NCBI GenBank assembly: GCA_005884925.1
Contig: VAYU01000024.1
Location: 41,120 to 105,119, forward strand
Length of the DNA stretch: 64,000 nt
Direction: 5' to 3'
Origin: Actinomycetota bacterium
GTDB lineage: Bacteria; Actinomycetota; UBA4738; HRBIN12
The position numbers were made by a program, and so were the translations under genes. This document shows positions 13,210-59,870 of this stretch, in pieces. The notes under the pieces were generated by a model, which saw nothing but the letters and a program-made list of their open reading frames with translations, did no database searches and had not been told where the DNA came from. How positions within the stretch are numbered: position 1 is the stretch's first letter; every line of letters starts with the position of its first letter.

Positions 13210-13356
13210 GTGAACATCGGCCGTCCCAAGCGGATCATCGAGATCGAGCCCGCCACGATCCCGCTGCCCGACCCTCAGATGCCGATGCCGGAGCCCGGGC
13301 CCGCGCCCGTCGAACCGATGCCGCTCGAGGTCCCCGTGGAACCGCCCGGTTCATGA
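13210..13356 (+). CDS. Hypothetical small Pro-rich protein (48 aa), translationally coupled to the next gene
   Basis: GTG start with a GGGAGG RBS 8 nt upstream. Its stop overlaps the ATG of the next ORF (ATGA). Not in the ORF track because it is shorter than 60 aa. Confidence 0.35.
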   Translation: MNIGRPKRIIEIEPATIPLPDPQMPMPEPGPAPVEPMPLEVPVEPPGS

Positions 13357-13928
13357 GCGCCAACGTCTCCCTCGCGCGCGAGCTCACCGTCGGTGCCACG
13401 ACGGAGCCGATCGTCGCGTGGCGGGCCTGGGCGCTCACCGGGCATCGCGACGGGACGGAGCTGCTGCTCCGCCCGGTCGCGGGGCGCTCCCGCCCCTGGC
13501 GACCCATGGAGCCCGCGGAGGCCGCGTGCAAGCACGCGCGCCTCCACGGAGCACCCAACGTGGACTGCTCATGCGGGCTCCACGGCACCCACGACGTCGA
13601 GATCCTTCGGCGGACGAGGTGCCCCGCCGTCTTGGGCCGGGTCGCGTTCTGGGGACGGGTGATCGAGCACGAGCTGGGGTACCGGGCGCAGTTCGGCTAC
13701 CCCCAGCGGCTGGCGCTCGTCTGTCAGTTCTGCTTCTGGCTCTGGGGGCCGCACGGCACGCGCCCCGCCGTCGTCGGGTGGCTCCAGCGCGACGAGCTGA
13801 TCCCGTTCTGCTGGCCGCACCTCGAGCAGGCCCAGCGCTATGGGATGGAGCCGAGGAGGTTGCTCCCGGCGGACGAGATCGATCTGCGGCTGCGCGAGAC
13901 GTACGCGGTCGACCTGCTCGCCTTCTAG
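13353..13928 (+). CDS. Hypothetical Cys/His-rich protein
   Basis: 191 aa with 8 Cys (CKHARLHG, CSCGLHG, CQFCFW, FCWPH). No family recognised. Confidence 0.5.
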   Translation: MSANVSLARELTVGATTEPIVAWRAWALTGHRDGTELLLRPVAGRSRPWRPMEPAEAACKHARLHGAPNVDCSCGLHGTHDVEILRRTRCPAVLGRVAFWGRVIEHELGYRAQFGYPQRLALVCQFCFWLWGPHGTRPAVVGWLQRDELIPFCWPHLEQAQRYGMEPRRLLPADEIDLRLRETYAVDLLAF

Positions 13929-13932
13929 CGCA

Positions 13933-14448
13933 CTACAGGTAGCCGCCGGGCTCGGCCGCTGCCTCGGCCGTCGGATCAGCCTCCGTGCTCGCCCTGGGAT
14001 CGGACGGCGCCTCCTCCGCAGGGTTCCCCTCGAAGAACGTCTGCCCTCCGAACGTGCGCTTGAGCTCGTCGTCCCAGTGGTCGGCCGCGAACGTGATCAG
14101 CCCGCACGCGTAGGAGATCTGCTCTGGTGTCAGCTCCTCCACGAACAACTCCATCGCGATGCAGACGGTGTCGTCCGTGAGGAACACGCGAGCGAACGAG
14201 AAACCCGCGTTCATGTCGTTCAGCTTCTCGAGCAGCTCCAGCGAGGTCGTGACCCCGTGGAGCAGCGGGGAGGACACCTGCAGCAACGGGTGGCCGCCGG
14301 CCGACCCCTCGAGGAGCCGAACGTTGACCGCCGAGGAGCCCGCTCGGATCGGGATCGTTCCATCGTCGAGGACCTTGAGCTCCTCGACCCCCAGGAACTC
14401 CTTGACGGTCTGCTCGACGAACGGTCGGATGACCTCCACGCGCGTCAC
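13933..14448 (-). CDS. YbjN-domain protein (T3SS-chaperone-like fold)
   Basis: 171 aa. LLEKLNDMNAGFSFARVFL and a C-terminal FGGQ region match the YbjN family. It is the last gene of a 3-gene minus-strand operon. Confidence 0.7.
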   Translation of the reverse strand: MTRVEVIRPFVEQTVKEFLGVEELKVLDDGTIPIRAGSSAVNVRLLEGSAGGHPLLQVSSPLLHGVTTSLELLEKLNDMNAGFSFARVFLTDDTVCIAMELFVEELTPEQISYACGLITFAADHWDDELKRTFGGQTFFEGNPAEEAPSDPRASTEADPTAEAAAEPGGYL

Positions 14449-14458
14449 GCGGAAGATG

Positions 14459-15127
14459 CTACTTCCCGTTCGTTGAGAAGTGCTGGTAGTCGATGGGCCA
14501 TGACCAATCGCCGCCCCACCCCCAGCCGATCATGTGGAACGCCTTCCACACGACGTCGCCGTGGAAGATCATCCCCTTGCGCCTGTTGGACCGATCCGTG
14601 TACGCCGCCCCGTTCGGCGGAGCGATCCCGCCCGACCACAGCTCGGGGTTCTCGACGGGGTTGATGTCGATCGCCTTGCCGTAGGCGTGCATCGACCAGG
14701 TGCAACAGACACCGTTGCGGTACCGACAGTTGAATGCCGATGTGTTGTCGTGCTTCATCGAACGCTTGTCGACGGCCCCGTAGCGATCGACCAGCCGGAT
14801 CCTGCGGATCGGGAAGCGGGCTGCGTAGAGCTTCCCGAATAGCCGCTGGACGTCCCGCGCGACCGTTCGATGCACGACGAGCCTGCCGTGGTGCGCCTGG
14901 CGGTCGAACCCCCAGAAGGTGACGCCGACCACGCGGAGGTCGTTCAGCCCGACGGGGCACCCCGGCCGCCACGACGATCCGCGCATCAGGTCGCGGACCG
15001 ACGCCGAGAGGGGTCGCACGCTCGAGCGGTACGGCGGCGCCGAGGCGGCGACCGGTCCGGAGGGAACGAGGACGAGCGCCACGGCCAGCAGGACAACGCC
15101 ACGTCGCATCAGCCGATGATGGCGCAT
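14459..15127 (-). CDS. Secreted peptidase M15 (VanY / D,D- or L,D-carboxypeptidase-like)
   Basis: Signal peptide (MRHHRLMRRGVVLLAVALVLVPSG). M15 zinc signature SMHAYGKAIDINP (SxHxxGxAxD) and a distal His (DYQHF). The upstream 290 aa of the 510 aa track ORF are an alternate frame of the neighbouring gene. Confidence 0.75.
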   Translation of the reverse strand: MRHHRLMRRGVVLLAVALVLVPSGPVAASAPPYRSSVRPLSASVRDLMRGSSWRPGCPVGLNDLRVVGVTFWGFDRQAHHGRLVVHRTVARDVQRLFGKLYAARFPIRRIRLVDRYGAVDKRSMKHDNTSAFNCRYRNGVCCTWSMHAYGKAIDINPVENPELWSGGIAPPNGAAYTDRSNRRKGMIFHGDVVWKAFHMIGWGWGGDWSWPIDYQHFSTNGK

Positions 15128-15158
15128 CCTGGCCAGGAACGTCCGGAGGCGCGCGGGC

Positions 15159-17156
15159 TCAGGACGAGGGTGATTCGAGGTCGCCGAGGCCCTTCTTGCG
15201 GGCCGCCGACTGCGCGAGGCGGAACCGAAGGCTCTTGTCGCCCTGTTCGCCGTCGCCGTTCTTGTCCGAGGTCCCGTTCCCGTCCGCCTCGGACGGAACC
15301 ATCGTCCTGAACGCGGGGATCGGCTTCGGCTCGGGGTCCATGTCCGGCTCGAGGTCGCCTCCCTCGTCGATCTCCCGAACGCCATGCCGCTCGGCAAGCA
15401 GGTCCGCCTCGAGCCTGGCCGCGCGTTCCTCGGCCGCCTGAGCGCGCTCGAGAGCGCGAGCGAGCTCCTGGCGGAGCTCGTGGGTGCGCGGATCCTCGCC
15501 GCGTGAGGCGGCGGGATCGGGGGCCCGTTGCAGTGATCGAGCCTGTGCCACTTCCGCGTAGGCCCTCCGGAGACGCTGATCCATCTGTTCGAGCTCTGCG
15601 CGCGTCGAGTCGAGGTGCCGCTCGAGCTCTTCGGTCCTCGTATCGGGCGCGTCCGGCTTCGTAGGCGGCGACTGTTCGAGCTCGAGGAGCCGAGCGCGGA
15701 GCGCGTCCCGCTCGGCGGTGAGCTGCGCCATCTCGCCGCGGACCGCGTCCCCGCCGGACTCCGCCTCCTGTGCCCGGCGCTCCAGATCGGCTTTCGCGGC
15801 TTCGACCTCTCGCAACTGCTGCGTCGCGGCGGCCGTCGTGGCTTCGAGCTCCGCCGCACGCGAACCCAGCTGTGCGACCTTCGTCTCGAGCTCGTCCCGG
15901 ACCGCCTCGGTCGCCTCGGCCCGTCGCGCGCTGTCCGCGGCCGCTGCCATCGCTTCTTGGGCCGCGCGTTCCAACTGGGTGATGCGCTCATCCGTCACCG
16001 GCCGCATGCTCGCCTGGCTCGCCTCCACGAGACGAGCCTCGAGCTCCGTCACCCTCGCCTCGGCGGCCGTGGCTTTGGCCTCGAACCCGCGAGCTCGCTG
16101 GCCCGTCTCCTGAGCGAACCGCTCGGCGGCGGCGAGCCGCTGCGCGGCCTCGCCGCCGCCTGGAGCTGCCGCGCGCGCCTCGGCTTCCTCGGCACGTGCG
16201 GCCGCCACCTGCAGCTGCTGGGTGAGCTCGAGGACGTGCCGTCCGGCTTGATCCTCCTGCTCGCGGATCCTGGTCCGGAGCTGCTCGAGCTGCGTCTCGA
16301 GCGCCTCCCGGACCTGGATCTCGCGCTGCGCTTCCTTCTCAGCTCGTTCGACCTCTTCCTTCGAGGGGCGACCGTCGGCGGTCGCCTCCTTGTCCCTGCG
16401 GAAGCGCCACCTCTTGGGGTCGGCCTTCGGCGACCCCTCGTCTGCGGTGAGTCTGGTCGAGGTTCCGGGCGGGGACGCCGGGCGGGAATGGGCGCGCGCG
16501 CGAGCGCGCTTGATCGAAAGGCGCCGCGAGAGCAGCAGCAGGGTGATCAGGAGGAACACCACGGCCGCGGCCCCGAGCCCCAGCTCGGCCGTGTGCCACG
16601 GCTTCTGGGATGCAGCTTCGATCGGTGCGTAGCGCTGATCCACGGACACCGCGCCGCTGGGCTTGCCCCTGGCACCTTGCAGCCGGACGTAGGTGTGGAG
16701 GAGCTCGATCGACGTGGGCCGGGTACCGATCGAAACCCGATCGATCCCAACGACGCCCGTGGCAGCGCCGCCTGCGGCACTCCGGATCGCATCCGCGTCG
16801 CCGGGCTTCGTTCCCGGGTCATCCCCAGCATCGGACGAGAACAGGAGCGTTCCGTCCTGCGAGAAGATCCGCACGCGAACGATCACTCCGCCGGCGAGGG
16901 GGCCCTTCTGGAGTTGGTTCCGAAGCTTGACCGCCGTCCCGCTTGGCAGCGGCTTCGTGAGGTTGGCCCCGCCGAGCGCCGGGGCCACGATCTGCCGGAC
17001 GATGGCCGATGCCTTGCTCTCCTGGCTTTTCACCTTCGACGTCAGCGCGCTCCGCTGCATGAACGAAGCGCCGGCGACGAAGAGACCACACATCACGACC
17101 AGCACCGCGAAGAGCGGCCACTTGATCCCTCTGCGGTCGTCGGTCCCGATGATCAT
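15159..17156 (-). CDS. Hypothetical two-TM membrane protein with an extracytoplasmic domain and a 450 aa cytoplasmic coiled coil
   Basis: 665 aa. TM1 lies at about residues 14-32, an extracellular domain of about 155 aa follows, TM2 lies at about 191-212, then a long Ala/Glu/Arg-rich heptad region. No catalytic motif recognised. Confidence 0.6.
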   Translation of the reverse strand: MIIGTDDRRGIKWPLFAVLVVMCGLFVAGASFMQRSALTSKVKSQESKASAIVRQIVAPALGGANLTKPLPSGTAVKLRNQLQKGPLAGGVIVRVRIFSQDGTLLFSSDAGDDPGTKPGDADAIRSAAGGAATGVVGIDRVSIGTRPTSIELLHTYVRLQGARGKPSGAVSVDQRYAPIEAASQKPWHTAELGLGAAAVVFLLITLLLLSRRLSIKRARARAHSRPASPPGTSTRLTADEGSPKADPKRWRFRRDKEATADGRPSKEEVERAEKEAQREIQVREALETQLEQLRTRIREQEDQAGRHVLELTQQLQVAAARAEEAEARAAAPGGGEAAQRLAAAERFAQETGQRARGFEAKATAAEARVTELEARLVEASQASMRPVTDERITQLERAAQEAMAAAADSARRAEATEAVRDELETKVAQLGSRAAELEATTAAATQQLREVEAAKADLERRAQEAESGGDAVRGEMAQLTAERDALRARLLELEQSPPTKPDAPDTRTEELERHLDSTRAELEQMDQRLRRAYAEVAQARSLQRAPDPAASRGEDPRTHELRQELARALERAQAAEERAARLEADLLAERHGVREIDEGGDLEPDMDPEPKPIPAFRTMVPSEADGNGTSDKNGDGEQGDKSLRFRLAQSAARKKGLGDLESPSS

Positions 17157-17379
17157 CCTCGTCCCACGCGTCGGACGCAGGCACCCACGGGTGCCTTCCC
17201 TGCTGTGTGCTTCGGCGCATGCGGGGACGACCTGAACCCCCGGGCTAGGACTTCAGGTCTGCTATGGATCTGGTAGAACCGGACCCGTTGTGGCGCACGG
17301 GGTCTAAGGACCGGTCGGTCTCGGACGCTCGAGTGCAGGGGCCATCGCGGAGTAGCCGCGCCTGCGCCAGAATCCGTAC

Positions 17380-18825
17380 GTGGAGACCGCGACGCAGACA
17401 CTGCACCGGCTGACGTCCATCGACCGCGTGTTCGCGGATGCACCGGGCAGCGAGTGGATGCCCCCGGTCGAGGACCCTCGCGTGGTCCAGGACCTCGAGA
17501 CCAACGACCTGGCTCGCTTCCCGTGGTTCTACAAGCGCTACGAGCTGACGTTGCCCCGCCTGCCGCTCCCTCGCACCCTGCCGACCACCGCGGCCCCCGC
17601 GGTCGCCGTCCTCGCGGGCACGGCGGACGTCGGTGCGACCGGATTGGATCTTCCGCAGCTCTCCCGGTTGTTGCACCTTTCCGCAGGCGTGGTGCGCACG
17701 ATGGCGCGGCCCTACACGACCTGGCTGTTCCGCGCCGCTGGGTCCGCGGGCGGCCGCTTCCCGCTGGAGCTGTACGTCGCCGTGCCCGACGGCATGCAGG
17801 TGCCTGCCGGCGTGCACTGGTACGACCCGCAGGACCATGCCCTGGTGCGGATCGCGCCGCCGCCTCGCGCCGGCGCGCCCGCCCTGATCGTCACCGGCGT
17901 CCCGTGGCGCACCGGCTGGCGCTACCGCGAGCGGGGGTACCGGCACGTGTACTGGGACGCCGGCACCATGCTCGGCCAGTCGCTCGCCGGTGCCGACTCC
18001 GCGGGGCTCACCGCGTCGCTGTACAGCCGCTTCCCGGACGGGCCGGTGGCCGCGCTCGTCGGCGCCGACGGCGTGCACGAGTGGCCCGTGGCCGTCGTTT
18101 CGCTCGGCAGCGACACGCCCGCGCTCGACGCCTCCGGTCCGGCAGCCTCGGGCGATGTCGACGCGGCGCCGTTGGAGTTCCACCTCGACACCGAAGCGCA
18201 GCGGGCGGGCGATCGCGACTCGCTCGGGCCGCCGTGGGAGCGCGGGGCCCCGGTCGACGTGCCCGTCCTCGGAGCGAGCCCGATCGAGGCCATCGTGCTC
18301 GCGCGCGGTTCGCAGCGCCGCATGGATCCCACCCGCGGCCTGCCGGAGAACACGCTCCACACCTCCATGCGCGCCGCGCTCCGTGGGGTCGATCTCCCGC
18401 ACCGCGTCGTGGTCCACGACGTCGAAGGCGTCGTGCCTGGTCTCTACCGATGGCCGGACCTCTCGGCCCCCGCACGCGCTGGTGCGATGCGAGATGAGCT
18501 CTATCGGGTGTGTTGGGAGCAGGGCCTCGCTCGCGATGCGGCGTTCGTCGTGATCGCCGCGACGAACGTCGGCGCGCTCGACGATCGGGAGTACCGCGAG
18601 GTGCACCTCGCGGCCGGCCTGGTGATGGGCCGGCTGCATCTGCTCGCCTACGGCCTGGGCGCGAGCGCCTCCGGGATGACGTTCGTCGATAGCGAGGTGC
18701 CCGGGCTGTTAGGGGAGCCGCTCGATGGTCTGTTGTTCACGTGCGTCGGCGTGCCGGAGTACACGTCGGCGACGGGCGGGTCGCCGGGTGCGCCGACCGA
18801 GGTGCGGAAGGTGACGGAACGGTAG
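17380..18825 (+). CDS. Tandem SagB-type (nitroreductase-fold) dehydrogenase domain protein
   Basis: 481 aa. Domain 1 has AAGSAGGRFPLELYV, HWYDP and RERGYRHVYWDAGTMLGQSL. Domain 2 has GSQRRMDPTRGL and a C-terminal GLGASASGMTFVD. Confidence 0.7.
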   Translation: METATQTLHRLTSIDRVFADAPGSEWMPPVEDPRVVQDLETNDLARFPWFYKRYELTLPRLPLPRTLPTTAAPAVAVLAGTADVGATGLDLPQLSRLLHLSAGVVRTMARPYTTWLFRAAGSAGGRFPLELYVAVPDGMQVPAGVHWYDPQDHALVRIAPPPRAGAPALIVTGVPWRTGWRYRERGYRHVYWDAGTMLGQSLAGADSAGLTASLYSRFPDGPVAALVGADGVHEWPVAVVSLGSDTPALDASGPAASGDVDAAPLEFHLDTEAQRAGDRDSLGPPWERGAPVDVPVLGASPIEAIVLARGSQRRMDPTRGLPENTLHTSMRAALRGVDLPHRVVVHDVEGVVPGLYRWPDLSAPARAGAMRDELYRVCWEQGLARDAAFVVIAATNVGALDDREYREVHLAAGLVMGRLHLLAYGLGASASGMTFVDSEVPGLLGEPLDGLLFTCVGVPEYTSATGGSPGAPTEVRKVTER

Positions 18826-18835
18826 ACGCGTCCGC

Positions 18836-19858
18836 TCAGTGGTACGAAGGCGAGCCACTCCCCTTGAAGACTCGGAACAACACGAACAAGGACGGAGCCA
18901 GGAGCAGGATGCCGACCGCGAATCCGACAGCGAGCGGCCGCAGCGCGTTCGCGGGGGCAGCCGCGTCCGCGACCGTCATGTCGGGGACGATGAGGTAAGG
19001 CCACTGCGCGACCCCCCATCCCGCGACCACGGATGCGACGGCGACCGCCGCGCCGACCCGCGCGGGCCGGTAATGGCGACGCGCGACCGACCACAAGGAC
19101 GCGATGCCACCCACGGCCGACACCACGGCGAACGGCCACGCTCGTGTGAGCATCCCGTGCCACAGCTGCGGTGACACGCTGCGTGTGACGACGAGTCCCA
19201 GCATGGCCACGACGCCCGACACGGCACCGGAAACGAGCGCCCGGCGGCGGAAGACCTCCTCCATCACGAGATCGTGTCGCTGCATCGCTTCGACCGTCAG
19301 GTAGCTCGCCGCGAGGAACGCACACGACGCGAGCGCCAAGAGCCCGGTCACGATCGACAGGGGGCCGGTCCATGAGCCCCACAGCGAAGCCACGACGGTC
19401 GATCCGGCGACGCGGATCCTGCCAGAGGCGACTGCTCCCGCGGCGGCGCCGAGCGCGAGTGGCGTCACGATCGACGCGACACCGAACACCCTCGTCCACG
19501 TCCGTTGCCACGCCGACCCACGATCGCCCCACGAACGGAACGCGAACGCAGCGCCGCGGAACACGATCCCGGCGATGGCGATCGAGAATGGCACGTAGAG
19601 CGCGAAGCCGAGCGACGCGAACGCCGAGGGGAAGGCCGCGAGCAAGCCGGTGATCACGAAGATCAGCCAGACGTGGTTCGCTTCCCAGACGGGTCCGATC
19701 GCTTCGGAGATGAGGGCCCGCTCACGCTCGCCGACCGATCCGATCGCCAAGAGATCCCACACGCCGCCGCCGAAGTCCGCTCCCCCGAGCAACCAGTAGA
19801 GGGTGAGGCCCCCCCCGATCGCGATCAGGATCACGACCTCGAGCTGGAACGTCGTCAT
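18836..19858 (-). CDS. cydB: Cytochrome bd ubiquinol oxidase subunit II
   Basis: 340 aa polytopic membrane protein. Its start overlaps the cydA stop (ATGA). The track ORF is a longer antisense-extended version. Confidence 0.85.
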   Translation of the reverse strand: MTTFQLEVVILIAIGGGLTLYWLLGGADFGGGVWDLLAIGSVGERERALISEAIGPVWEANHVWLIFVITGLLAAFPSAFASLGFALYVPFSIAIAGIVFRGAAFAFRSWGDRGSAWQRTWTRVFGVASIVTPLALGAAAGAVASGRIRVAGSTVVASLWGSWTGPLSIVTGLLALASCAFLAASYLTVEAMQRHDLVMEEVFRRRALVSGAVSGVVAMLGLVVTRSVSPQLWHGMLTRAWPFAVVSAVGGIASLWSVARRHYRPARVGAAVAVASVVAGWGVAQWPYLIVPDMTVADAAAPANALRPLAVGFAVGILLLAPSLFVLFRVFKGSGSPSYH

Positions 19859-21198
19859 CCCGCCGCCTCGAGCTCGACCGCCCCGCGTGGCGTCCGCGCG
19901 AGACGAAGGAGCAGCCACGCGCAGGCGGCGCCGAGTAGAGCGTAGATCGCCACGGTCGCCGCGAGCCAGAAGGCGATCCCCGGTCGCGATGTCACAGCAT
20001 CCGCGGTCCTTGTTTGCCCGTACACGATCCACGGTTGACGACCGAGCTCGGTCACCACCCAGCCCATCTCGAGGGCGACGAAGGTCGCCGGTCCAGCAAC
20101 GGCGGAGGCTCGGAGGAACCACTTCGTCTCGGGGAGGCGCCGGCGCCGGATCCACATGATCAAGGCCCACAGCCCGAGCGCGGCAAGCGCGAACCCGATC
20201 GCCACCATGATCTGGAAGGCGAGGTGCACGACGACGACGTTCGGGCGATCCGCCGGTGGCACCTCGTCGAGGCCGCGGACGACCGCCGCGGGATCGCCGT
20301 AGGCCAACCACGACAGTCCCCCGGGGATCCTGATCCCGAGGATGGTCCGTTCTTGCGACGGCAGCGGGATCCCGCCGATCGTGAGGGGCGCATGCGCCGT
20401 CGTCCGCCAGAGCCCTTCCATCGCGGCCAGCTTCACCTGCTGGCGATCCGCCACCAAGCGCGCCGCCGCGTCACCGACCACGATCTGGATCGGCGCGAGC
20501 GCGAGCCCGAGCACCAGTCCGACCGCGAGGCCGCGTCGGTGGTACGCGTCGCGACGCCCCTTGAGCATCCCGACCGAGTACACGGCCGCGACGGTGAACC
20601 CGGTCGCCATATAGGCAGCCACGATCATGTGGCTGGTCATCACCGGGGTCGATGGGTTCAACATCGCGGCGATCGGTTGCACATCGACGACCCGGCCGTT
20701 GCTCACCCTCGCGAACCCGGTCGGTGACTGCATCCACGCGTTCGCGGTCACGACGAACCAGGCGCTCGCCACCCCACCGATCGCCACGGGCCATCCCGCG
20801 GCCCAATGTGCCCACGGCGAGAGCCGATCCCAGCCGAACAGGTAGACCCCGAGGAAGATCGCCTCGATGAAGAACGCGAACGCCTCGAGGGCGAACGGGA
20901 GGCCGATCACGGCGCCCCATCTCCCCATCAGCCCGGGCCAGAAGAGCCCGAGCGCGAACGACAGCACCGTGCCGGAGACCGCCCCCACCGCTACGAGGAT
21001 CCCGAGCGCCCTCGCCCATCGCCGGCACAGCGCCATCCACACGGCGTCGCCCGTCCGGTTCGCCCGGTACTCCGCGAACAGGAGCAGCACCGGGAGGCCG
21101 ACCGCGAGCGCCGCGAAGACGATGTGGAACCCGAGCGATACGGCCATCTGTGCTCGGGCCGCCTGGAGCGACGTCAGCGCGACGATGATCAACATCAC
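19855..21198 (-). CDS. cydA: Cytochrome bd ubiquinol oxidase subunit I
   Basis: 447 aa with characteristic CydA helices and Q-loop region (GWVVTELGRQPWIVYG). Confidence 0.9.
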   Translation of the reverse strand: MMLIIVALTSLQAARAQMAVSLGFHIVFAALAVGLPVLLLFAEYRANRTGDAVWMALCRRWARALGILVAVGAVSGTVLSFALGLFWPGLMGRWGAVIGLPFALEAFAFFIEAIFLGVYLFGWDRLSPWAHWAAGWPVAIGGVASAWFVVTANAWMQSPTGFARVSNGRVVDVQPIAAMLNPSTPVMTSHMIVAAYMATGFTVAAVYSVGMLKGRRDAYHRRGLAVGLVLGLALAPIQIVVGDAAARLVADRQQVKLAAMEGLWRTTAHAPLTIGGIPLPSQERTILGIRIPGGLSWLAYGDPAAVVRGLDEVPPADRPNVVVVHLAFQIMVAIGFALAALGLWALIMWIRRRRLPETKWFLRASAVAGPATFVALEMGWVVTELGRQPWIVYGQTRTADAVTSRPGIAFWLAATVAIYALLGAACAWLLLRLARTPRGAVELEAAG

Positions 21199-21225
21199 GG
21201 GACGCCCTCAGGCTCTCATGTTGAG

Positions 21226-21298
21226 TGGAGACGAGCGGACTCGAACCGCCGACCCCCTGCTTGCAAAGCAGGTGCTCTACCAGCTGAGCTACGTCCCC
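21226..21298 (-). tRNA. tRNA-Ala (anticodon TGC)
   Basis: 73 nt cloverleaf with G3:U70 in the acceptor stem, anticodon loop CTTTGCAAG and T-loop GGTTCGAGTCC. CCA is not encoded. It sits 27 nt upstream of cydA on the same strand. Confidence 0.9.
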
Positions 21299-22877: not shown

Positions 22878-23441
22878 TCAGCGTTGGGTCCACCCCGGGC
22901 GCGTGCCGTCGTCCTCGAGGAACTGTACGAACGGTGAATCGTCGTTCGCGAGACCGACGATCGCCCGCACCGTTCCGTCGGCATCAAGCAGCCTGAGCAC
23001 GGGGGCACCCCCCGCCGCCAGCCCGAGCCGGACGCGAACCTTCCCGCGCTGGTCGTACAGACCCATCGTCGGGGTTCCCTGCTCCGCGAGCTTGTGGCGA
23101 TGTTGCAGCTCGCCGTCTTCGACGTCGACGCCCATCGTGGGCGAGGCATCCGAACCCAGTCCGAACTTCGCGCGGATCCTGCCGTGTTTGTCGCCGAACG
23201 CCAGGGACGCCGACCCATCGGAAGAGAGCCCGAACGTCGCGCGGACCTTGCCGTTGTCGTCGGCGATCGCCAGACCCGCCGCTCCGTCCGACTGCACCCC
23301 GAACCGGGCTCGGACGCTCCCGTCGGCATCGAGCATCGAGAAGAACGGGTGTTCATCGCCGGACAGGCCGATCCGCATCCGGACGTGGCCGAGTTCGTCC
23401 ACGACTTCGAACTCCTCGGCTCGAACGACACGCTTCTTCAT
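22878..23441 (-). CDS. Hypothetical tandem-repeat protein (about 7 copies of a roughly 23 aa LxDxDGxVRAxFGLxSDGxxx unit)
   Basis: 187 aa, monocistronic and convergent with the SolA-like gene. The repeats are visible by eye. Confidence 0.55.
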   Translation of the reverse strand: MKKRVVRAEEFEVVDELGHVRMRIGLSGDEHPFFSMLDADGSVRARFGVQSDGAAGLAIADDNGKVRATFGLSSDGSASLAFGDKHGRIRAKFGLGSDASPTMGVDVEDGELQHRHKLAEQGTPTMGLYDQRGKVRVRLGLAAGGAPVLRLLDADGTVRAIVGLANDDSPFVQFLEDDGTRPGWTQR

Positions 23442-27896: not shown

Positions 27897-27971
27897 GTGG
27901 GCCTGGATGGACTTGAACCATCGACCTCTTCCTTATCAGGGAAGCGCTCTAACCGAGCTGAGCTACAGGCC
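27897..27971 (-). tRNA. tRNA-Ile (anticodon GAT)
   Basis: 75 nt cloverleaf GGGCCTGTAGCTCAGCTCGGTTAGAGCGCTTCCCTGATAAGGAAG...GGTTCAAGTCCATCCAGGCCCA. Confidence 0.9.
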
Positions 27972-28049
27972 CGTGCGATCTGACATCCGATGATCCGAGG
28001 ACGTCAACGAGCGTAGCCAGGCTTCCGAAACGCGTCAATCGGAGCCCTG

Positions 28050-30909: not shown

Positions 30910-33360
30910 TTACTCCTCGTCCATCTGGATGATGACGGGAGCGATCGCGGCGACGTTCTCGCCGTCCTCCACCCTCATCGTGCGGACGCCCTGGCTCGAA
31001 CGCCCGACCCGACGGATGTCGGCCGCCCCGACCCGCTGCACCTTGCCGGACGACGAGATCGTCAGGAGGTCCTGGTCCTTGGAGCCGATGAACGCGCCCG
31101 CGAGCTCGCCGGTCTTGCGGGTGAGCTGATGGCCGATGACTCCCTTGCCGCCTCGACCCTTCGTCGGATAGTCGGCGAGACGCGACCGCTTGCCATACCC
31201 GTTCCGGGACACGCTGATCATCTCTTCGCCGTCGGATGCGAGCGCGAGGGCGATGACCTCGTCGCCTTCCGCCAACCGCATGCCGATCACGCCCGCGGTC
31301 GCCCGCCCCATCGGACGGACGAGGGACTCCTTGAACCGGATGGCTTGACCGCGCCGGGACACGAGGAACACGTCGTCCTTGCCGTTGGTCAGGCGGACGT
31401 CGACGAGTTCGTCCCCCGCCTTCAGGTTGATGGCGGCGAGCCCCGTGCGAGCGGAGGCGTACTCCGGGAGCGCCGTCTTCTTGACCATGCCGTGCTTGGT
31501 CGCGAACAGGAGGAACTGACCTTCCGCGTACTCCTTGAGGTCGAGCACCGCGCTCACCTTCTCGTCGGCGTTCACGGCGACACCGGGAAGGTTGGCCGCG
31601 TAGAGGCCTCGAGCGATGCGCGACGAGTCGGGCACCTCATGGACCTTCACCCGATACACCCTGCCCCTCGTCGAGAAGAACAAGAGCCAGTTGTGGGTGG
31701 TCGTCGTGAAGACGTCGGTGATGACGTCCTCCTCTTTGAGGGTGGCGCCCTTGACGCCCTTGCCACCCCTCCCCTGTCGCTTGAACGCATCGATGGGCTG
31801 GCGCTTCACGTATCCGGCGCGGCTGACCGTGATGACGACGTCCTCCTCGGCGATCAGGTCCTCAACGTCGAACTCGCCCTCGTCGGCCTTGAGCTGCGTC
31901 CTGCGCGGATCCCCGTATCTCTTCTTGATCTCCGCAAGCTCGTCCTTGATCACGCTCCGGAGCTTCTTGGGGCTCTTCAACAGGGAGTCCAGGTACTTGA
32001 TCCGCGCGAGCAGGTCCTTGTGCTCCTGCTCCAGCTCGGCGCGGGCCAGCCGCGTGAGGCGGCGCAGCGGCATGTCGAGGATGTGGTTCGTCTGGACCTC
32101 GCTCAGCTTGAACTTCGCCATGAGCTTGGTCCGCGCCTCTTCGGAGTCCTGGGACCCGCGGATGATCTTGATGACCTCGTCCAGGTGGTCGAGGGCGATC
32201 AGCAGGCCCTGCACGATGTGGTCGCGCTCTTCGGCCTTCCGCTTCTCGTATCGGGTCCTGCGCGTGACGACGTCGATCTGGTGATCGACGTAGTAGCCGA
32301 TCATCTCGGCGAGGTTCAGCGTGCGCGGCACGCCGTCGACGAGCGCGAGCATGATCACGCCGAAGTTGTCCTGCAGCTGCGTGTGCTTGTAGAGCTGGTT
32401 CAGCACGACGTGCGGGTTCGCGGCTCGTTTGAGATCGATCACCAGCCGCATGCCCTCGCGACCGCTGGAGTGATCCTGGACGTCGGCGATCTCCTTGACC
32501 CGGCCGGTCTTCACGAGGTCCGCGATCTTCTCCGCGAGCCGCGCCTTGTTCACCTGGTACGGCAGCTCGGTGATGACGATCCGGGAACGGCCGGAGCTAC
32601 CCTCCTCGATGGAGCAGACGCCCCGGACCTTGATGGACCCACGCCCGGTCTCGTACGCGTCGCGGATGCCGTCCTTGCCCAGGACGATGCCGCCGGTCGG
32701 GAAGTCGGGTCCCTTGACGAGCTTCCGGAGGTCCGCCGCCTTCACCTCCGGGTTGTCGATGAGATGGATGACGGCATCGATCACTTCGCCGAGGTTGTGC
32801 GGCGGGATGTTCGTGGCCATCCCGACCGCGATGCCCCCCGAGCCGTTCACCAGCAGGTTCGGGAACCGGGAGGGGAGCACGACGGGCTGCTGCTCGTACC
32901 CATCGAAGTTCGGCTCGAAGTCGACGGTCTCGGCCTCGATGTCCCGCAGGAGCTCCAGGGCCACGGGCGCGAGCCGAGCCTCCGTGTACCGGTAGGCGGC
33001 GGGCGGATCGCCATCGACGGAACCGAAGTTCCCGTGACCGTCGACCAAGGGTGCGCGCAGCGAGAAGTCCTGGGCCATCCGGACCAGCGCGTCGTAGATC
33101 GCGTCGTTGCCATGAGGGTGGTACTTCCGGATCACGTCGCCGACGACCGCCGCCGACTTGCGGTACGGACGGTCGGGTCGAAGACCGGACTCGAGCATCG
33201 ACCACAAGATCCGGCGGTGGACCGGTTTCAGACCGTCGCGCACCTCGGGCAACGCGCGTCCGACGATGACCGACATCGCGTAGTCGAGGTACGAGCGCTG
33301 GATCTCGTCCTCGAGCTGGACGGGTTCGATGTTCCCGGCGAACAGACCTTCCTGTGGCAC
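30910..33360 (-). CDS. gyrA: DNA gyrase subunit A
   Basis: 816 aa. [26 protein letters not shown] motif and C-terminal beta-pinwheel repeats. Confidence 0.97.
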
Positions 33361-33379: not shown

Positions 33380-35417
<2,038 letters not shown>

Positions 35418-35461: not shown

Positions 35462-35836
35462 TCAGCCCTGTGACCTGCGGTTTCGCCCCTCTCGGGACAC
35501 CGGGCCGACCACGATCCGGACGGCCTTCACCGACCCGGTTCCGAGGGCCGCATCGGCCCGTTCCCGGATCTGTTCCGAGAGGTATTTCGCCTGTGCTCCC
35601 CAGGGCCCATCGGACGCTCGGACGACGAGGACCCCACCCTCCAAGGACGCCGGCTGCGTCGCTCGCGCGAGCCGCTCCCCCACCAGCTCGGGCCACCGCC
35701 GGGCGAGGGTCGCGATCGGCATCCCGCGGCTGAAGACGTCTTCACGCATCAATGCATCGACGACGTCGCCGATCGGCACCGGATCCCCGGTGCGCCGATC
35801 CGAGCGACGCCCGAACCCCTTCGAGTGCGGCATCAC
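35462..35836 (-). CDS. dciA: DUF721 / DciA-like protein
   Basis: 124 aa. It lies between recF and gyrB as Rv0004 does. A conserved WxxxVGxxLAxxxxPxxLxxGVLxVxAxxxxWAxQ pattern is present. Confidence 0.6.
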   Translation of the reverse strand: MMPHSKGFGRRSDRRTGDPVPIGDVVDALMREDVFSRGMPIATLARRWPELVGERLARATQPASLEGGVLVVRASDGPWGAQAKYLSEQIRERADAALGTGSVKAVRIVVGPVSREGRNRRSQG

Positions 35837-36930
35837 GCGGCCTCGTGCCGCGCGATGACGCTGCCGCCGCGCACGTCCAGGATCGCCGTCGCCTGAGCGG
35901 GGACGTCGGCTTCGTCGGCCACACTAATCACGACCTGACCCGGTCGCGCGGCGAGGATCGAGGCGATCCTGTCGCGGCGTGTCGGATCCAGCGCGCTGTA
36001 GGGATCGTCCACCAGCAGGACCGGCGGCTCGCCGATCGCGGCTTCCACGGCGGTCGCGAGTCCCAGACGGACGGCGAGCGCCGCGACCCAGGTCTCCCCG
36101 TGAGAGGCGAAACTGCGGGCACCGAGATCCCGCACGGCGAGGTCCAGATCGTCTCGATGAGGGCCGACGAGCGAGGTCCGACGCTGAAGCTCGTCGGACC
36201 GTCGCTCGTCGAGCCGATGCCGGAACCCCGCCTCCACCTCGGTCGCCGGGACGTTCGGCGCGTAGCGCACCACCAGGTCGTACCCCGACACGGCCGAGAA
36301 CGCTTGCGAAGCTGGAGGTGCGACCGCGTCCACGGACTCGGCCCGAGCCCGGATCACCGCCGCGCCGGTTTGGATCAGCTGCTGGTCCCACGCCTCGAGC
36401 TCCGGAGGAGCGCCTCGGCCTTCGTGCTCCTTCAGGAGACGATTCCGCTGCCGGAGCACACGCTCGTACGAGCTGGTCAGCGTGTCGCGCGACGGTTGCA
36501 GCAGCACGACGACCTCGTCCATGAATCCACGGCGGCGAGCAGGATCGCCGGTGACGATCGGCAGATCGAACGGTCCGAACAACACGACACGTACCGCTCG
36601 GCGCAGGTCTCGCCGACGACGGACGGTCGACCGATCGACCTGCACCCTGTTGGCGCCTTTCCGCCGGATCTCGACCTCGACGAGGACGCGGCCGTCGCGC
36701 GTCTCGAACTCCCCCCGGACGTACGCGACGTCCGCGCCGTGTCGCACGAGCGGTTCGCTCGCGCTCACGCGCGGACTCCCGAGCGAATACAGGAAGTGCA
36801 TGGCCTCCAACAGATTGGTCTTGCCTTCGCCGTTGGGGCCGGCCACCACGATGACCCCATCGTGTCCGAGATCGACCCGGGTGTGCACGTGGTTGCGATA
36901 GTCCCGCAACTCCACCCATGACAGGCGCAT
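35833..36930 (-). CDS. recF: DNA replication and repair protein RecF
   Basis: 365 aa with Walker A (GPNGEGKTNLLEA) and an SMC-like signature. Confidence 0.95.
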   Translation of the reverse strand: MRLSWVELRDYRNHVHTRVDLGHDGVIVVAGPNGEGKTNLLEAMHFLYSLGSPRVSASEPLVRHGADVAYVRGEFETRDGRVLVEVEIRRKGANRVQVDRSTVRRRRDLRRAVRVVLFGPFDLPIVTGDPARRRGFMDEVVVLLQPSRDTLTSSYERVLRQRNRLLKEHEGRGAPPELEAWDQQLIQTGAAVIRARAESVDAVAPPASQAFSAVSGYDLVVRYAPNVPATEVEAGFRHRLDERRSDELQRRTSLVGPHRDDLDLAVRDLGARSFASHGETWVAALAVRLGLATAVEAAIGEPPVLLVDDPYSALDPTRRDRIASILAARPGQVVISVADEADVPAQATAILDVRGGSVIARHEAA

Positions 36931-36955: not shown

Positions 36956-38068
36956 CTACACCACGGCGGCGGGGAGCCGCACTGGCATCACGAGGTAGGT
37001 GAACCCGTCGCTCTCCCCGTGCACGACGCCGGGCTTCAGCCCGTCCCGCACGTCCAGACGCACGGACTCACCGACCGCGGCGGTGAGTCCGTCGATCAAG
37101 TATTGCGGGTTGAACGCGACCGTCAGATCGTCTCCTTCGTACCGAGCTTCGACCGTCTCTACGGCCTGGCCGAGGTCCGGGGAGCTGGAGGACAGTTTGA
37201 CGCCGAGCGCGTTGAACTCGAGTCGGACCGGCGTGGTGTCGCGAGCGAGGAGTCCGACGCGTCGAACGGCATCCAGCAGCTGTTGCCGCGACACGGTCAG
37301 CCGGCTCTCGTGCGTGTCCGGGAGGAGCTGACGGTAGTTCGGGAACTCACCCTCGATCAGCCGAGAGGTGAGCGTCAGGCCTCCGGCGCGGAACGACACC
37401 TGGGCATCGTCGACGAGGATCTCGACCTTGCCCTTCTCGTCGCCCGCGGCCGCGCGCCCGGCCTCGGAGAACGCACGTTCCGGAACGATCGCCTTCGCCT
37501 CACCGTCAGCGCTGGCGACGAGGTCGCGAACCGCGAGCCGATACGAGTCCGTCGCGACCAGCACGCAACCTTCGCGGCTGACCTCGACCAGGACCCCGGT
37601 GAGGACCGGTCGCGCTTCGTCGCGGCTGGCCGCCCGCGCGACCTGTGACACGGCCTCCGCGAATGCGCCGGCGTCGGCCTCGACCCGAGTGCCTCCGGGC
37701 TCCTGCAATCCCGGGAAGTCCTCGGCGGGGAGCAGCCGAAGCGATCCTTCGTACGCCGCACACCTGATCCTCGCCTGCGACTGGTCCGTCTCCACGTCCA
37801 CCGGGGCGTCGGAGAGCGATTTCACGGTGTCCGTCAGCAGCCGGGCCGGGATCAGCGCGACACCAGGCTCAGTCACCTGAACGTCGATCGTGAGCCGAGC
37901 CGAGACTTCAAGATCCGTCGTCGTCATGGTCAACTGGCCGTCGGCGGCTCCGTCCAGCAGGACCCCCGTTAGCGCGGGGATCCCCGGTCGCGATGACACC
38001 CCGCGCTGAACCGTCTGCAAGGCCTCGGACAACGCATCTCGATCGCATCGGAACTTCACCGTGCACAC
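36956..38068 (-). CDS. dnaN: DNA polymerase III subunit beta (sliding clamp)
   Basis: 370 aa with three clamp domains. The start may instead be GTG at 38059 (VKFRCD, cf. MKF...). Confidence 0.93.
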   Translation of the reverse strand: MCTVKFRCDRDALSEALQTVQRGVSSRPGIPALTGVLLDGAADGQLTMTTTDLEVSARLTIDVQVTEPGVALIPARLLTDTVKSLSDAPVDVETDQSQARIRCAAYEGSLRLLPAEDFPGLQEPGGTRVEADAGAFAEAVSQVARAASRDEARPVLTGVLVEVSREGCVLVATDSYRLAVRDLVASADGEAKAIVPERAFSEAGRAAAGDEKGKVEILVDDAQVSFRAGGLTLTSRLIEGEFPNYRQLLPDTHESRLTVSRQQLLDAVRRVGLLARDTTPVRLEFNALGVKLSSSSPDLGQAVETVEARYEGDDLTVAFNPQYLIDGLTAAVGESVRLDVRDGLKPGVVHGESDGFTYLVMPVRLPAAVV

Positions 38069-39690: not shown

Positions 39691-39948
39691 GCCTATTCCA
39701 CAGAACCTTTCCACAACGGTGGAAAACCCAACGGGGGGATCCTCCGACTCGGGAGACGCGGCCCGGTCGCGCGCCCCGGGGGAAGGCGGGCTGGAAGATA
39801 GCACGGTGGTTTTCCACACCGCACGCGCGACGGGGGGTCTTGACGTTCTTTCTGTTGTCAAGAGCTTTGGCCAGCGAGGATGCTCGCCCCGTATACTGCC
39901 CGCTCGACCGGCGCGAACCGGTCTCCGATCGAGCGAGGATCTCCACGG
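39691..39948. promoter_or_regulatory. dnaA-rpmH divergent promoter region with DnaA-box-like sites
   Basis: TATTCCACA at 39694..39702. The palindrome TTTCCACAACGGTGGAAA at 39708..39725 is two inverted box-like half-sites. TTTTCCACA at 39810..39818. Confidence 0.6.
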
Positions 39949-41989: not shown

Positions 41990-42477
41990 ACAGCGACGTG
42001 CCGGACGAGGTCGATCTCGAAGAACAGGCTGACGCGGTCGCTGACTTCGTCGAGGAGCTCCTCGGCCAGATGGACATCGATGCGATCGCGGAGCCGGCTC
42101 AACAGGGCGAGCGGTTCTACGTCGATATCCTCGAAGGACCGCCGGAGGACCTGGCGCTGCTGATCGGCAAGCACGGTCAGACGCTCGATGCGATCCAGGA
42201 GCTCGCGCGCAACGTCGTCGGGCGGCGTCTCGACGAGCGGATCCGGGTCCTCGTCGATGTGGAGGATTACAGGAAGCGGAGGGCGTCCCGGCTTGAGGAG
42301 CGAGCGCGCGAGGCGGCAGAGCGGGCGCTGGCTACCGGTCAGGAGCAAGAGCTCGAGCCGATGGACGCCCTCGAACGGAAGATCGTTCACGACGCTGTGG
42401 CGAGCATCGTAGGCGTACAGAGCGGCTCACGCGGCGAGGATCCGAACCGGTTCGTCGTCGTCAGCCCGGCCGACTGA
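41986..42477 (+). CDS. jag: RNA-binding protein Jag/KhpB (KH + R3H)
   Basis: 163 aa. GKHGQTLDAIQELAR (KH) and C-terminal R3H. GTGA overlap with yidC. Confidence 0.85.
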   Translation: MNSDVPDEVDLEEQADAVADFVEELLGQMDIDAIAEPAQQGERFYVDILEGPPEDLALLIGKHGQTLDAIQELARNVVGRRLDERIRVLVDVEDYRKRRASRLEERAREAAERALATGQEQELEPMDALERKIVHDAVASIVGVQSGSRGEDPNRFVVVSPAD

Positions 42478-42508
42478 AGGATCGCCCCTCTCCTCCCAGC
42501 GATGGAGT

Positions 42509-56796: not shown

Positions 56797-56820
56797 GGGC
56801 GCATCCTAGCCCGGCCCGTC

Positions 56821-58268: not shown

Positions 58269-58339
58269 GACGTGCGGATAGTAGCCCGAGGGCCTCGCCG
58301 CTCAGGCTCGGGGCCCATCATGCCGAAACGGAAGCCGGG

Positions 58340-59834: not shown

Positions 59835-59870
59835 GGTAGCGCGCCCGGCCCCGGCTATCCTCGTCCCGTC

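Follow-up and report, generated by a model that had tools for sequence, protein, structure and literature searches.

The gene located at positions 17380-18825 (+) of the window (the whole 64,000-nucleotide stretch of DNA analysed here) is a complete gene with a GTG start, which encodes a 481-amino-acid two-domain (pseudo-dimeric) putative flavoprotein of the nitroreductase superfamily. Its product is a further member of the 3EO7-like family, which is already known but remains uncharacterised. It is fairly probable that this flavoprotein functions on its own, probably as a monomer with pseudo-dimeric architecture, that it belongs to the SagB/ThcOx side of the superfamily, and that it exerts SagB-like chemistry outside RiPP biosynthesis. 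A non-RiPP substrate, which had been raised as an option in the first-pass annotation of this DNA, is plausible and is indeed the most likely one. Since the family shows no link to peptide-antibiotic genes, the protein is an ordinary member of it, neither a hidden antibiotic pathway nor an anomalous enzyme, and one more of those that automatic annotation already names as ‘SagB-type dehydrogenase family enzyme’.

The ORF exhibits GC3 and GC2 values (0.90 and 0.54, respectively) that are normal for the genuine genes of this window, which has a GC content of 69%. More than 3000 homologs of the protein have been found, the best 120 of which are 74-100% identical to it, and the gene is therefore far beyond what could be expected by chance. 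The same protein is also present, with 100% identity, on four independent public contigs, on all of which the adjacency to cydB is kept. High-GC DNA yields many long false ORFs, and several of them overlap this gene in other frames. However, the contrast between GC3 and GC2, the conservation of motifs in thousands of homologs that match over their full length, the fold predicted with confidence and the end-to-end match to a solved structure leave a negligible chance that the ORF is a spurious long frame or a pseudogene, an explanation already discarded on the basis of the homology and structure results. All the peptides quoted from this ORF in the first-pass annotation were located in its translation: AAGSAGGRFPLELYV corresponds to residues 119-133, RERGYRHVYWDAGTMLGQSL to residues 183-202, RRMDPTRGL to residues 313-321, and GLGASASGMTFVD to residues 425-437.

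The neighbours are also those originally described. The gene cydB (18836-19858, -) is convergent with the SagB-like gene, from which it is separated by a gap of 10 nt, and cydA occupies positions 19855-21198 (-), while the gene for a 665-amino-acid coiled-coil protein (15159-17156, -) is divergent. The window represents the oriC region, and the ORFs found on the + strand at 41986-42477, 42509-43126, and 43123-44580 lie in what we take to be the usual place of jag, rsmG, and parA. The Rfam scan of the window for riboswitches and structured RNAs returned only two tRNAs. In the 223-bp gap upstream of the SagB-like gene, the sole candidate for a precursor peptide is an Arg-rich out-of-frame ORF of 49 amino acids that overlaps the start.

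The protein is homologous from end to end to 3EO7, as revealed by both sequence and structure comparison. 3EO7 is the cyanobacterial protein Ava_2154 from Anabaena variabilis, an unpublished JCSG structure described as a ‘putative nitroreductase’, with a PDB title that does not mention bound FMN. The two proteins are only 22-28% identical, and 3EO7, unlike the 481-amino-acid protein, holds longer insertions between the domains and in domain 2. This comparison names the family, not the activity. A literature search on 3EO7, Ava_2154, BT_0217, BF3017, and Reut_A1228 yielded mentions in molecular replacement and a multi-gene deletion strain, with no functional data. At E<1e-30, the family comprises at least 573 species-level genomes and at least 288 clusters at 50% identity, and more than 3,600 such clusters in all. 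Orthologs with 65-87% identity are distributed across several actinobacterial orders, at scattered genomic positions, and the cultured Actinoplanes xinjiangensis DSM 45184 carries one that is 65% identical. The gene had been described as an ‘orphan’, but there is nothing unusual in this, given that the family is very large and its members stand alone as a rule.

Four regions can be distinguished in the polypeptide. The N-terminal extension (residues 1-90; 17380-17649, +), recognised from alignment invariants and from the profile alignment to 3EO7, contains an RPxPFKxY motif (HxxT...RPxPFKxY overall) in which P48 and K52 are invariant and Y54 is conserved in at least 90% of the sequences. This extension is shared with 3EO7, where the aligned sequence is ‘qPvPFKeYk’, and with the single-domain relatives 3HOI, 8CQS, and 3HJ9, whose profile matches begin at profile positions 48-49. 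Its predicted structure is for the most part extended, and pLDDT is high from residue ~30 onwards. Domain 1 (residues ~91-247; 17650-18120, +) is the half with a SagB/ThcOx/McbC-like nitroreductase fold, as indicated by TIGR03605 and by profile matches. It is followed by an inter-domain linker (residues ~248-300; 18121-18279, +), defined by conservation and by the predicted structure, in which A276, G277, and W286 are near-invariant and a conserved helix is predicted at residues 268-276 with pLDDT >84. Finally, domain 2 (residues ~301-462; 18280-18765, +) is a second, diverged copy of the nitroreductase fold that arose by duplication, as recognised by hhalign against domain 1 (probability 97.4%, E 1.4e-11, 125 columns, 19% identity).

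The model PF00881 matches the protein in two stretches, and this model and TIGR03605 are the only ones detected in it; no RRE or docking domain was found. The whole protein reaches 77.5 bits with TIGR03605, 0.9 bit short of the curated cutoff of 78.4. The N-terminal half (residues 1-290) obtains 71.3 bits by itself, and the C-terminal half (residues 291-481) gives no match. Despite this marginal shortfall, the homology of domain 1 to SagB-type enzymes is not in doubt at the level of profile comparison, with matches to McbC (4e-17), ThcOx (5e-15), and BmdC (4e-14) over profile positions ~50-250; ThcOx and BmdC align to the protein through their oxidase domain only. Domain 2 exhibits only weak matches (1NOX, 3.5e-5; AlbA, 3e-3; also 4G8S and 4DN2) and, as judged by HMMs, resembles generic nitroreductases and is not of the SagB type. 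The original proposal that both halves carry SagB/nitroreductase-fold signatures consequently holds for the fold, while the SagB model matches the N-terminal half only. Similarly, the protein is not a ‘tandem SagB’, as its C-terminal half is a diverged and complementary nitroreductase half carrying an RRSxR-type motif that has been lost from the SagB-like half.

This complementarity is clearly observed in the distribution of the active-site motifs. Domain 1 contains the ‘PSAG’ loop R118-A-A-G-S122-A-G124-G-R-F-P128-L-E130-L-Y132 (17731-17775, +), identified by conservation and by alignment to R117/R118-P-Y-P-S-G-G of McbC. In this loop, R118 and Y132 are invariant and S122, G124, P128, and E130 are conserved in at least 90% of the sequences. 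In homodimeric relatives, a loop of this type contacts the FMN of the partner subunit (PMC6395948, PMC8795117): Arg117 ‘of the other subunit’ of McbC binds the FMN phosphate together with R82 of the first subunit (PMC6395948), and residues 182-186 of the second protomer of BmdC contact FMN (PMC8795117). Domain 1 also holds the dyad R181-Y182 (17920-17925, +), aligned through ‘fKYRYRGYR’ of McbC to Lys201-Tyr202, the catalytic Lys-Tyr pair of that enzyme (PMC6395948). Y182 is invariant in the family alignment, and the dyad is RY in 112 of the 120 close homologs and KY in 34 of 57 distant family representatives. The N1 stabiliser R233 of McbC is not conserved in this protein, which has Ser213 at the equivalent position; like the Arg of the dyad, this weighs against the SagB-like reading. 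Domain 1 lacks the RRSxR motif, since ‘RRSIREY’ of ThcOx is aligned to the non-basic ‘LAGTADVG’. A motif of this kind, R309-G-S311-Q-R313 (18304-18318, +), is present in domain 2 only, where R309 is invariant and R313 is conserved in at least 90% of the sequences, and its aligned counterpart in 1NOX, 4G8S, and 4DN2 is their N-terminal motif (profile 312-351). By analogy with BmdC, whose active site includes Arg145/Arg146/Ser147/Arg149 plus Tyr260 (PMC8795117), R309-G-S311-Q-R313 is predicted to contact the FMN phosphate and N1/O2. Domain 2 lacks in turn the PSAG loop, due to a 10-residue deletion in this clade (alignment columns ~438-447), and the K/R-Y dyad.

According to these motifs and to the published descriptions of homodimers, we infer that the two halves build one composite FMN active site, and Tyr182 of domain 1 and R309/R313 of domain 2 are deduced to face this same site. 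An ancient duplication would have fused two nitroreductase-fold halves that were later made complementary. Domain 2 would have retained Arg-x-Ser-x-Arg, which clamps the FMN phosphate and N1/O2, and domain 1 the loop (R118, S122-A-G124) that extends, in the usual case, into the FMN site of the partner subunit, along with R181-Y182 as the counterpart of the catalytic Lys-Tyr of azoline dehydrogenases. Each polypeptide would then possess one complete composite site, with a degenerate pseudo-symmetric second one. In the proposed reaction, Tyr182 would abstract the C-alpha proton while a hydride would be transferred from C-beta to N5 of FMN, and the reduced flavin would be re-oxidised by O2 or a quinone. 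As a net result, a substrate of the amide or imine type would undergo alpha,beta-dehydrogenation or aromatisation.

In this clade, the gene would be transcribed alone, mostly as a leaderless mRNA. A candidate -10-like hexamer, CAGAAT (17368-17373, +), is located 6 nt upstream of the GTG, in a leaderless arrangement with no Shine-Dalgarno sequence. In 52 of 67 orthologs, the aligned start codon is preceded by an nAnnnT element that ends 6-8 nt upstream of it, versus 198 of 1138 other gene starts from the same loci, and motifs similar to Shine-Dalgarno sequences appear in only 10 of the 67. Most orthologs (those 52) thus seem to carry their own promoter of the leaderless type. A scan for E. coli-type sigma70 promoters and terminators, uninformative at this GC content, detected nothing, so the promoter is proposed from its conservation across species.

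The genomic context is consistent with a protein that works without dedicated partners. Annotation of the whole window with Pfam revealed no YcaO, E1, or TfuA gene within the 64 kb, nor was a precursor-like ORF found there, which bears out the earlier remark that no YcaO or precursor partner is visible. None of these partners is enriched among the 134 immediate flanking genes of the orthologs from ~70 species, which matched 142 Pfam families with a maximum of four members each and random orientation. Redox enzymes (Zn-ADH, Pyr_redox, luciferase-like) are frequent in these positions, although they are not conserved (4/134 at most). All-versus-all clustering of 1273 neighbour proteins in search of a conserved operon partner retrieved no more than generic families, rich in paralogs and variable in position. 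A radical-SAM partner was also considered, as such genes lie beside two relatives, and it was rejected because it is recurrent in neither neighbour census. Among ~70 other species, only 2 have cydB beside the SagB-like gene, and the adjacency is already lost in a 78%-identical relative. The adjacency to cydB and to the coiled-coil gene, which had been noted in the first-pass annotation, is therefore lineage-specific synteny, and a functional link to cytochrome bd was discarded, the genes being convergent. Given the lack of a conserved partner and the gene's own transcription, the most likely substrate is a small molecule that diffuses, or a metabolite derived from peptides, made elsewhere.

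More distant relatives show a different organisation. One member, fused to an ATP-grasp domain, is encoded by the last gene of an NRPS operon, and another is placed after the MbtH gene in a GNAT-MbtH operon; these couplings indicate that the tailoring of peptide natural products is indeed a task of some relatives. In a distant clade, genes for ACAD, PutA, Rieske, and VOC proteins are translationally coupled in 25 of 47 loci, and YbaK/ProX-type partners also occur in a distant clade. Among the 47 loci in which an upstream gene had been called, none showed a YcaO-type partner, and coupling to RiPP genes was never seen in the census of distant branches.

These data bear on action in trans, one of the options raised in the first-pass annotation. 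The protein would then be an azoline-to-azole dehydrogenase serving a YcaO-dependent RiPP pathway, or an NRPS pathway that forms thiazolines, whose genes lie at another place in the genome. The invariance of Tyr182, the fact that McbC, ThcOx, and BmdC are the closest solved structures to domain 1 besides 3EO7, and the ATP-grasp/NRPS and MbtH couplings of distant relatives agree with such a role. Nevertheless, the absence of partners from the window and their lack of enrichment near the ~70 orthologs or in the 47 distant-clade loci, together with the absence of an RRE, make it quite improbable. Moreover, an identity of 65-87% maintained across orders at scattered positions agrees better with a conserved substrate of the housekeeping type than with a RiPP core, which is hypervariable, and the dyad contains Arg, a poorer general base, in place of Lys.

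An NAD(P)H-dependent nitro, quinone, or flavin reductase devoted to detoxification or redox-stress defence, in which the SagB-like features would be irrelevant, is unlikely but deserves more consideration. Membership in the superfamily (PF00881), the similarity of domain 2 to generic nitroreductases, the NADH oxidase 1NOX among them, the frequent redox neighbours, and the proximity of cytochrome bd in this lineage are compatible with it. In addition, a ‘SagB’-subgroup protein from soil eDNA exhibits NAD(P)H-type nitroreductase activity and activated metronidazole (PMC10055417), which gives the reductive direction some probability. However, the strongest conservation falls on SagB-type residues (R118, Y182, and the RGYR motif) and not on the substrate or NAD(P)H contacts of NfsA/NfsB-type enzymes, the redox neighbours are not conserved, and both the nearest characterised relatives (McbC, ThcOx, and BmdC) and flavin-dependent oxidases (FDOs) of similar architecture (TyzC) are oxidases or desaturases and not NAD(P)H reductases. 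The adjacency to cydAB might also suggest a ‘closed’ flavoprotein of the Acg type, or a protein without catalytic activity that binds or senses flavin in hypoxia and respiration. This is very improbable, because cydB is convergent, not co-transcribed, and rarely adjacent in other species, and the invariance of a catalytic-type Tyr and many Arg residues argues for catalysis. An Acg-like classification was likewise rejected, as it has no support in the sequence and the structural resemblance reflects a shared pseudo-dimer topology. Clustering with Acg-like housekeeping nitroreductases rather than with SagB/ThcOx, which had been named as contrary evidence, was not seen at the sequence level: no NCBIfam Acg model matches at E<=1, and the family profile does not match 2YMV at E<=10.

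The preferred reading, a stand-alone flavoprotein with SagB-like chemistry on a non-RiPP substrate, concerns a large, uncharacterised family with a structure solved since 2008. Automatic labels of the type ‘SagB family peptide dehydrogenase’ are probably misleading in genome mining, as they raise the expectation of thiazole/oxazole peptides. It is conceivable, albeit doubtful, that the 3EO7-like family, with the strongly conserved stand-alone clade of Actinobacteria studied here, represents an unrecognised class of free-standing flavin dehydrogenases that apply SagB chemistry to free N-heterocycles or amino-acid derivatives, with no RiPP or NRPS scaffold, at a single site formed by two sub-functionalised halves. 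As a speculation derived from the acyl-CoA dehydrogenase, PutA, and YbaK/ProX-type partners of distant relatives, cyclic imines (pyrroline-type intermediates) might be aromatised or desaturated by these proteins. The operon partners of the distant clade and branches (NRPS, acyl-CoA dehydrogenase, PutA, and Rieske ferredoxin) are testable leads to a first function, the complementarity of the motifs predicts one composite FMN site, and cultured Actinoplanes strains with the 65%-identical ortholog are usable for experiments.

Compared with known systems, the protein differs from McbC (6GOS), ThcOx/CyaGox (5LQ4, 8PZ5), and the NRPS oxidase BmdC (7LY4) in that these are homodimers with two equivalent FMN sites, each chain of which holds both RRSxR and PSGG, whereas here the motifs are split between fused non-identical halves. 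TOMM/azoline dehydrogenases have Lys in the dyad, contain an RRE or docking domain or else recruit one, and are encoded in clusters that include YcaO cyclodehydratases or NRPS Cy modules; the 481-amino-acid protein has no such domain and no cluster, bears Arg, and scores just under the TIGR03605 cutoff. The cyclodipeptide oxidase AlbA (8UC3), 1NOX, and NfsA/NfsB are homodimers or filaments of single-domain chains, and classical nitroreductases (NfsA/NfsB/Frp/NOX) display an RxS motif and a PSxxN loop in each chain, unlike this two-domain protein, for which no evidence of NAD(P)H use or of an AlbB-like partner was found. No sequence similarity is detectable to the Acg/TyzC/OxzB subgroup of FDOs (2YMV). 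FDOs are proteins of ~340 amino acids with a lid insertion, and many of them have a ThiF-like cyclase as a linked or fused partner (Grigg et al. 2023, PMC10404671), and no ThiF partner was seen for the protein studied here. A precedent, likened by description, is the pseudodimeric Ox domain of indigoidine synthetase IndC/BpsA (PMC8795117), a fused pseudo-dimer of the SagB/BmdC type that acts on a non-azoline ring derived from an amino acid. The Ox domain of IndC is embedded in an NRPS adenylation domain, while the 481-amino-acid protein is free-standing and, in its own clade, not linked to NRPSs.

The gene at 17380..18825 (+), described in the first-pass annotation as an orphan tandem SagB-type dehydrogenase, is present at those coordinates, with a GTG start and a 481-aa product, and every peptide motif quoted for it is found in its translation. 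Its GC3 (0.90) and GC2 (0.54) are the values of a genuine gene in a window of 69% GC, and the identical protein is encoded on four independent public metagenome contigs. More than 3000 homologs were recovered in a word-indexed search with the protein, the best 120 of which share 74-100% identity and measure 475-540 aa, and an exhaustive search of 50%-identity representatives returned 3633 clusters at E<=1e-3, of which 288 reached E<=1e-30.

In Pfam, the protein matches PF00881 (nitroreductase) alone (33.5 bits, two stretches), and in NCBIfam it narrowly misses the curated cutoff of TIGR03605, the SagB family peptide dehydrogenase domain (77.5 against 78.4 bits). Scanned separately, residues 1-290 gave 71 bits with this model and residues 291-481 no score. 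In a family-profile search, domain 1 (profile positions ~50-250) matched McbC (4e-17), ThcOx/CyaGox (5e-15) and BmdC (4e-14), as well as the single-domain proteins 8CQS, 3HOI and 3HJ9, whereas the matches of domain 2 (~310-490) were weak and limited to generic nitroreductases (1NOX, 3.5e-5; 4G8S; 4DN2; albonoursin synthase, 3e-3). Profile-profile comparison of the two sub-alignments (A3 and A4) revealed that the domains are homologous (97.4% probability, E 1.4e-11, 125 columns, 19% identity), which makes the protein the product of an ancient internal duplication and a fused pseudo-dimer. It is not a "tandem SagB": of the two homologous halves, only the first is SagB-like.

The divergence of the two domains is complementary. 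Domain 1 retains the loop R118-x-x-x-S122-A-G124-x-x-x-P128-x-E130-x-Y132 and the segment W-(K/R)181-Y182-x-E-R185-G-Y-R188, which aligns to the catalytic K201-Y202 and the RGYR helix of McbC, and the flavin-phosphate motif RRSIREY of ThcOx falls in this domain on a non-basic LAGTADVG. Domain 2 retains R309-G-S311-x-R313 (consensus RRGSTRRF) and lacks both the SAG loop, with a ~10-residue deletion in the clade of this protein, and the K/R-Y dyad. Arg stands in place of the dyad Lys in 3EO7 and in the clade of this protein (112/120 close homologs with RY), the canonical KY being present in 34/57 distant family representatives; Tyr182 is invariant throughout. In BmdC, Arg145, Arg146 and Ser147 hold the FMN phosphate, Arg149 holds N1/O2, the second protomer supplies residues 182-186, and Tyr260 is directed at the flavin (PMC8795117). 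Mapping the roles described in solved relatives onto the split motifs yields exactly one complete predicted site. We infer a single composite FMN site, in which domain 2 would provide the clamp and domain 1 the trans loop and the catalytic Tyr, the pseudo-symmetric second site being probably degenerate.

The neighbours had been named correctly: the gene is convergent with cydB (18836-19858, -; gap of 10 nt), beside cydA (19855-21198, -), and divergent from a gene for a membrane-anchored 665-aa coiled-coil protein without a significant Pfam domain (15159-17156, -). The latter, a Peptidase_M15_4 gene (14459-15127, -) and a gene for a YbjN/TY-Chap1-like putative chaperone (13933-14448, -) form an apparent three-gene unit (13933-17156, -), possibly cell-envelope related, that recurs on public contigs of the same lineage. 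Next to this unit, 13353-13928 (+) encodes a 191-aa protein (GC3 0.94, no Pfam match) with Cys/His clusters (…CKHARLHGAPNVDCSCGLHG…, …CQFCFW…CWPH…) that hint at a zinc-binding module; on public contigs, a 48-aa ORF precedes its gene.

The window belongs to a high-GC actinobacterium and spans its chromosomal origin region, with gyrA (30910-33360, -), gyrB (33609-35336, -), a DciA-family gene (35462-35836, -), recF (35833-36849, -), dnaN (36956-38068, -), dnaA (38263-39714, -), yidC (40736-41989, +), ORFs in the usual positions of jag, rsmG and parA (41986-44580, +) and parB (44610-45479, +); oriC presumably lies in the gaps flanking dnaA. It also holds crgA and genes for a D-Ala-D-Ala ligase, a thioredoxin-reductase-like protein, an ECF sigma/anti-sigma pair, MurJ and a CCA-adding enzyme. 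Rfam reported two tRNAs and nothing else, tRNA-Ala(TGC) (21225-21298, -) and tRNA-Ile(GAT) (27897-27972, -), each isolated among protein-coding genes; this anticodon pair is usually located in rRNA operon spacers, although no rRNA was reported in the window. A 187-aa protein (22878-23441, -) of repeated ~20-residue units (…G.VRA.FGL..DG…L…D..G…), without a significant Pfam match, could be a small repeat protein or one of beta-solenoid type. Within these 64 kb, which cover part of the genome, no YcaO, ThiF/E1, TfuA, lanthipeptide, radical-SAM or NRPS gene was found, nor any Cys/Ser/Thr-rich small ORF in the 223-bp gap upstream of the dehydrogenase gene, in agreement with the reported lack of a visible YcaO or precursor partner.

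At least 573 relatives were identified when GTDB species were scanned, each represented by one genome. The sources of the best 80 (65-83% identity) are uncultured Actinomycetota of soil (Gaiellaceae/Thermoleophilia, Streptosporangiaceae, Pseudonocardiaceae and Mycobacteriales among them), cultured Actinoplanes and a few MAGs labelled as other phyla, some MAG taxon labels possibly reflecting mis-binning. Clustering of the 1273 neighbour proteins within ±10 kb of the orthologs yielded no conserved partner; the commonest neighbour family, Zn-ADH/quinone-oxidoreductase-like, occurs at 20/81 loci with varying distance and strand. The 134 immediately flanking genes contain 142 Pfam families, none with more than four members (cydB in two), and their orientation is random (34 same-strand and 33 opposite upstream; 36 and 31 downstream). 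A tight same-strand upstream gene exists in only 8/67 loci, and a relative with 78% identity, on a contig of 185 kb, has neighbours entirely different from those in the window.

When 68 orthologs were anchored at the aligned start codon (67 distinct upstream sequences), a conserved -10-like element (e.g., GTGCGAGAGTC, GCGAGAATC, GCCAGACTG) was found to end 6-8 nt before it in 52/67 sequences, against 198/1138 other gene starts of the same loci, taken from a crude GC3-based gene caller. The copy in the window is CAGAAT (17368-17373, +), and Shine-Dalgarno-like motifs appear in only 10/67 sequences. A -10-like element just before the start codon is the classical arrangement of actinobacterial leaderless mRNAs, which argues for an autonomous transcription unit and for the annotated GTG as the true start.

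More distant family members (~36-47% identity) do have gene partners, and RiPP machinery was never found beside them among the loci examined. In one of these loci (L086:621-10781), a 926-aa fusion of an ATP-grasp (L-amino-acid-ligase-like) module and the two-domain dehydrogenase closes a two-gene NRPS operon (A-T-C-T and C-A-T) by translational coupling, which makes up a small, uncharacterised NRPS cluster with BmdC-like tailoring logic. One other member lies downstream of GNAT and MbtH genes, one downstream of a radical-SAM gene, and one is isolated. At L089:5631-8467, the CCA-adding enzyme gene has its stop codon inside the start of the family gene, within a murJ-DUF6049-…-T2SSE-CCA block; the same conserved block occurs in the window without a dehydrogenase (53102-61256; CCA-adding enzyme at 59871-61256), and this placement, together with the gene studied here, indicates that the family has entered core regions near the origin on more than one occasion. 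When metagenomes were scanned with the canonical K-Y member P0200 as anchor, 80 loci were obtained. An upstream gene was called in 47 of them, and in 25 it lies on the strand of the dehydrogenase gene at no more than 30 nt, mostly with a 4-nt overlap. Recurrent partners, confirmed with Pfam, are acyl-CoA dehydrogenase (ACAD; about 10 loci), PutA (proline/P5C dehydrogenase; 4), a small Rieske [2Fe-2S] ferredoxin (3-4), VOC/glyoxalase (3-4), a YbaK/ProX-type tRNA-editing domain (3) and DUF2017 (3). In this distant clade (loci L092-L171; ~36-40% identity with the protein of the window), tightly coupled operons end with the two-domain dehydrogenase (e.g., L095:3779-9509, L107:141-2845, L117:1989-3871), preceded by ACAD and/or PutA, the ferredoxin, a VOC/glyoxalase protein or a YbaK/ProX-type domain. 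The behaviour of the broader family is thus that of a versatile redox module in the chemistry of small molecules or NRPS products, and the clade of the window protein is its stand-alone version.

The protein is most likely a monomeric pseudo-dimer that binds FMN at one composite active site and carries out SagB-type dehydrogenation. Tyr182, helped by Arg181, would act as the base, hydride would pass to FMN N5, the substrate would be non-RiPP and derived from an amino acid or heterocycle, and the reduced flavin would be re-oxidised by O2 or quinone. In a rival reading, the protein would be an NAD(P)H-dependent nitro/quinone reductase of the classical type; the main supports for this are its membership of the nitroreductase superfamily and the nitroreductase activity described in one report for a 187-aa soil protein of the "SagB" subgroup (PMC10055417). 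The proposal that the enzyme acts in trans with RiPP partners, as a TOMM dehydrogenase, is disfavoured by the neighbourhood data, by the lack of a detected RRE in the protein and by the Lys-to-Arg change in the dyad. An Acg-like hypoxia protein could be suspected next to cydAB, but the likeness to Acg is architectural only and this adjacency is not conserved across orthologs.

All three of the defining features tested place the protein in the 3EO7-like family. Being an orphan is no oddity, since two-domain "SagB-type" proteins of this kind are abundant and already auto-annotated, and the locus itself is nothing exceptional. The interest lies in a family still functionally blank despite a structure from 2008, for which the inferred single composite site, stand-alone expression from a predicted leaderless mRNA and, in other clades, the partners of ACAD, PutA, Rieske and NRPS type provide leads; the ACAD/PutA/Rieske/VOC/YbaK-ProX set, loosely of a "proline / cyclic-imine oxidation" flavour, could guide substrate discovery. 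Compared with SagB/TOMM dehydrogenases, the protein narrowly misses the TIGR03605 cutoff, carries RRSxR outside its SagB-like domain, conserves half of the Lys-Tyr dyad (Tyr kept, Lys to Arg), and lacks an RRE and, in the 64-kb window, a YcaO or precursor gene. It is therefore not to be classed among the SagB/TOMM dehydrogenases proper, although in its chemistry it probably still resembles them.
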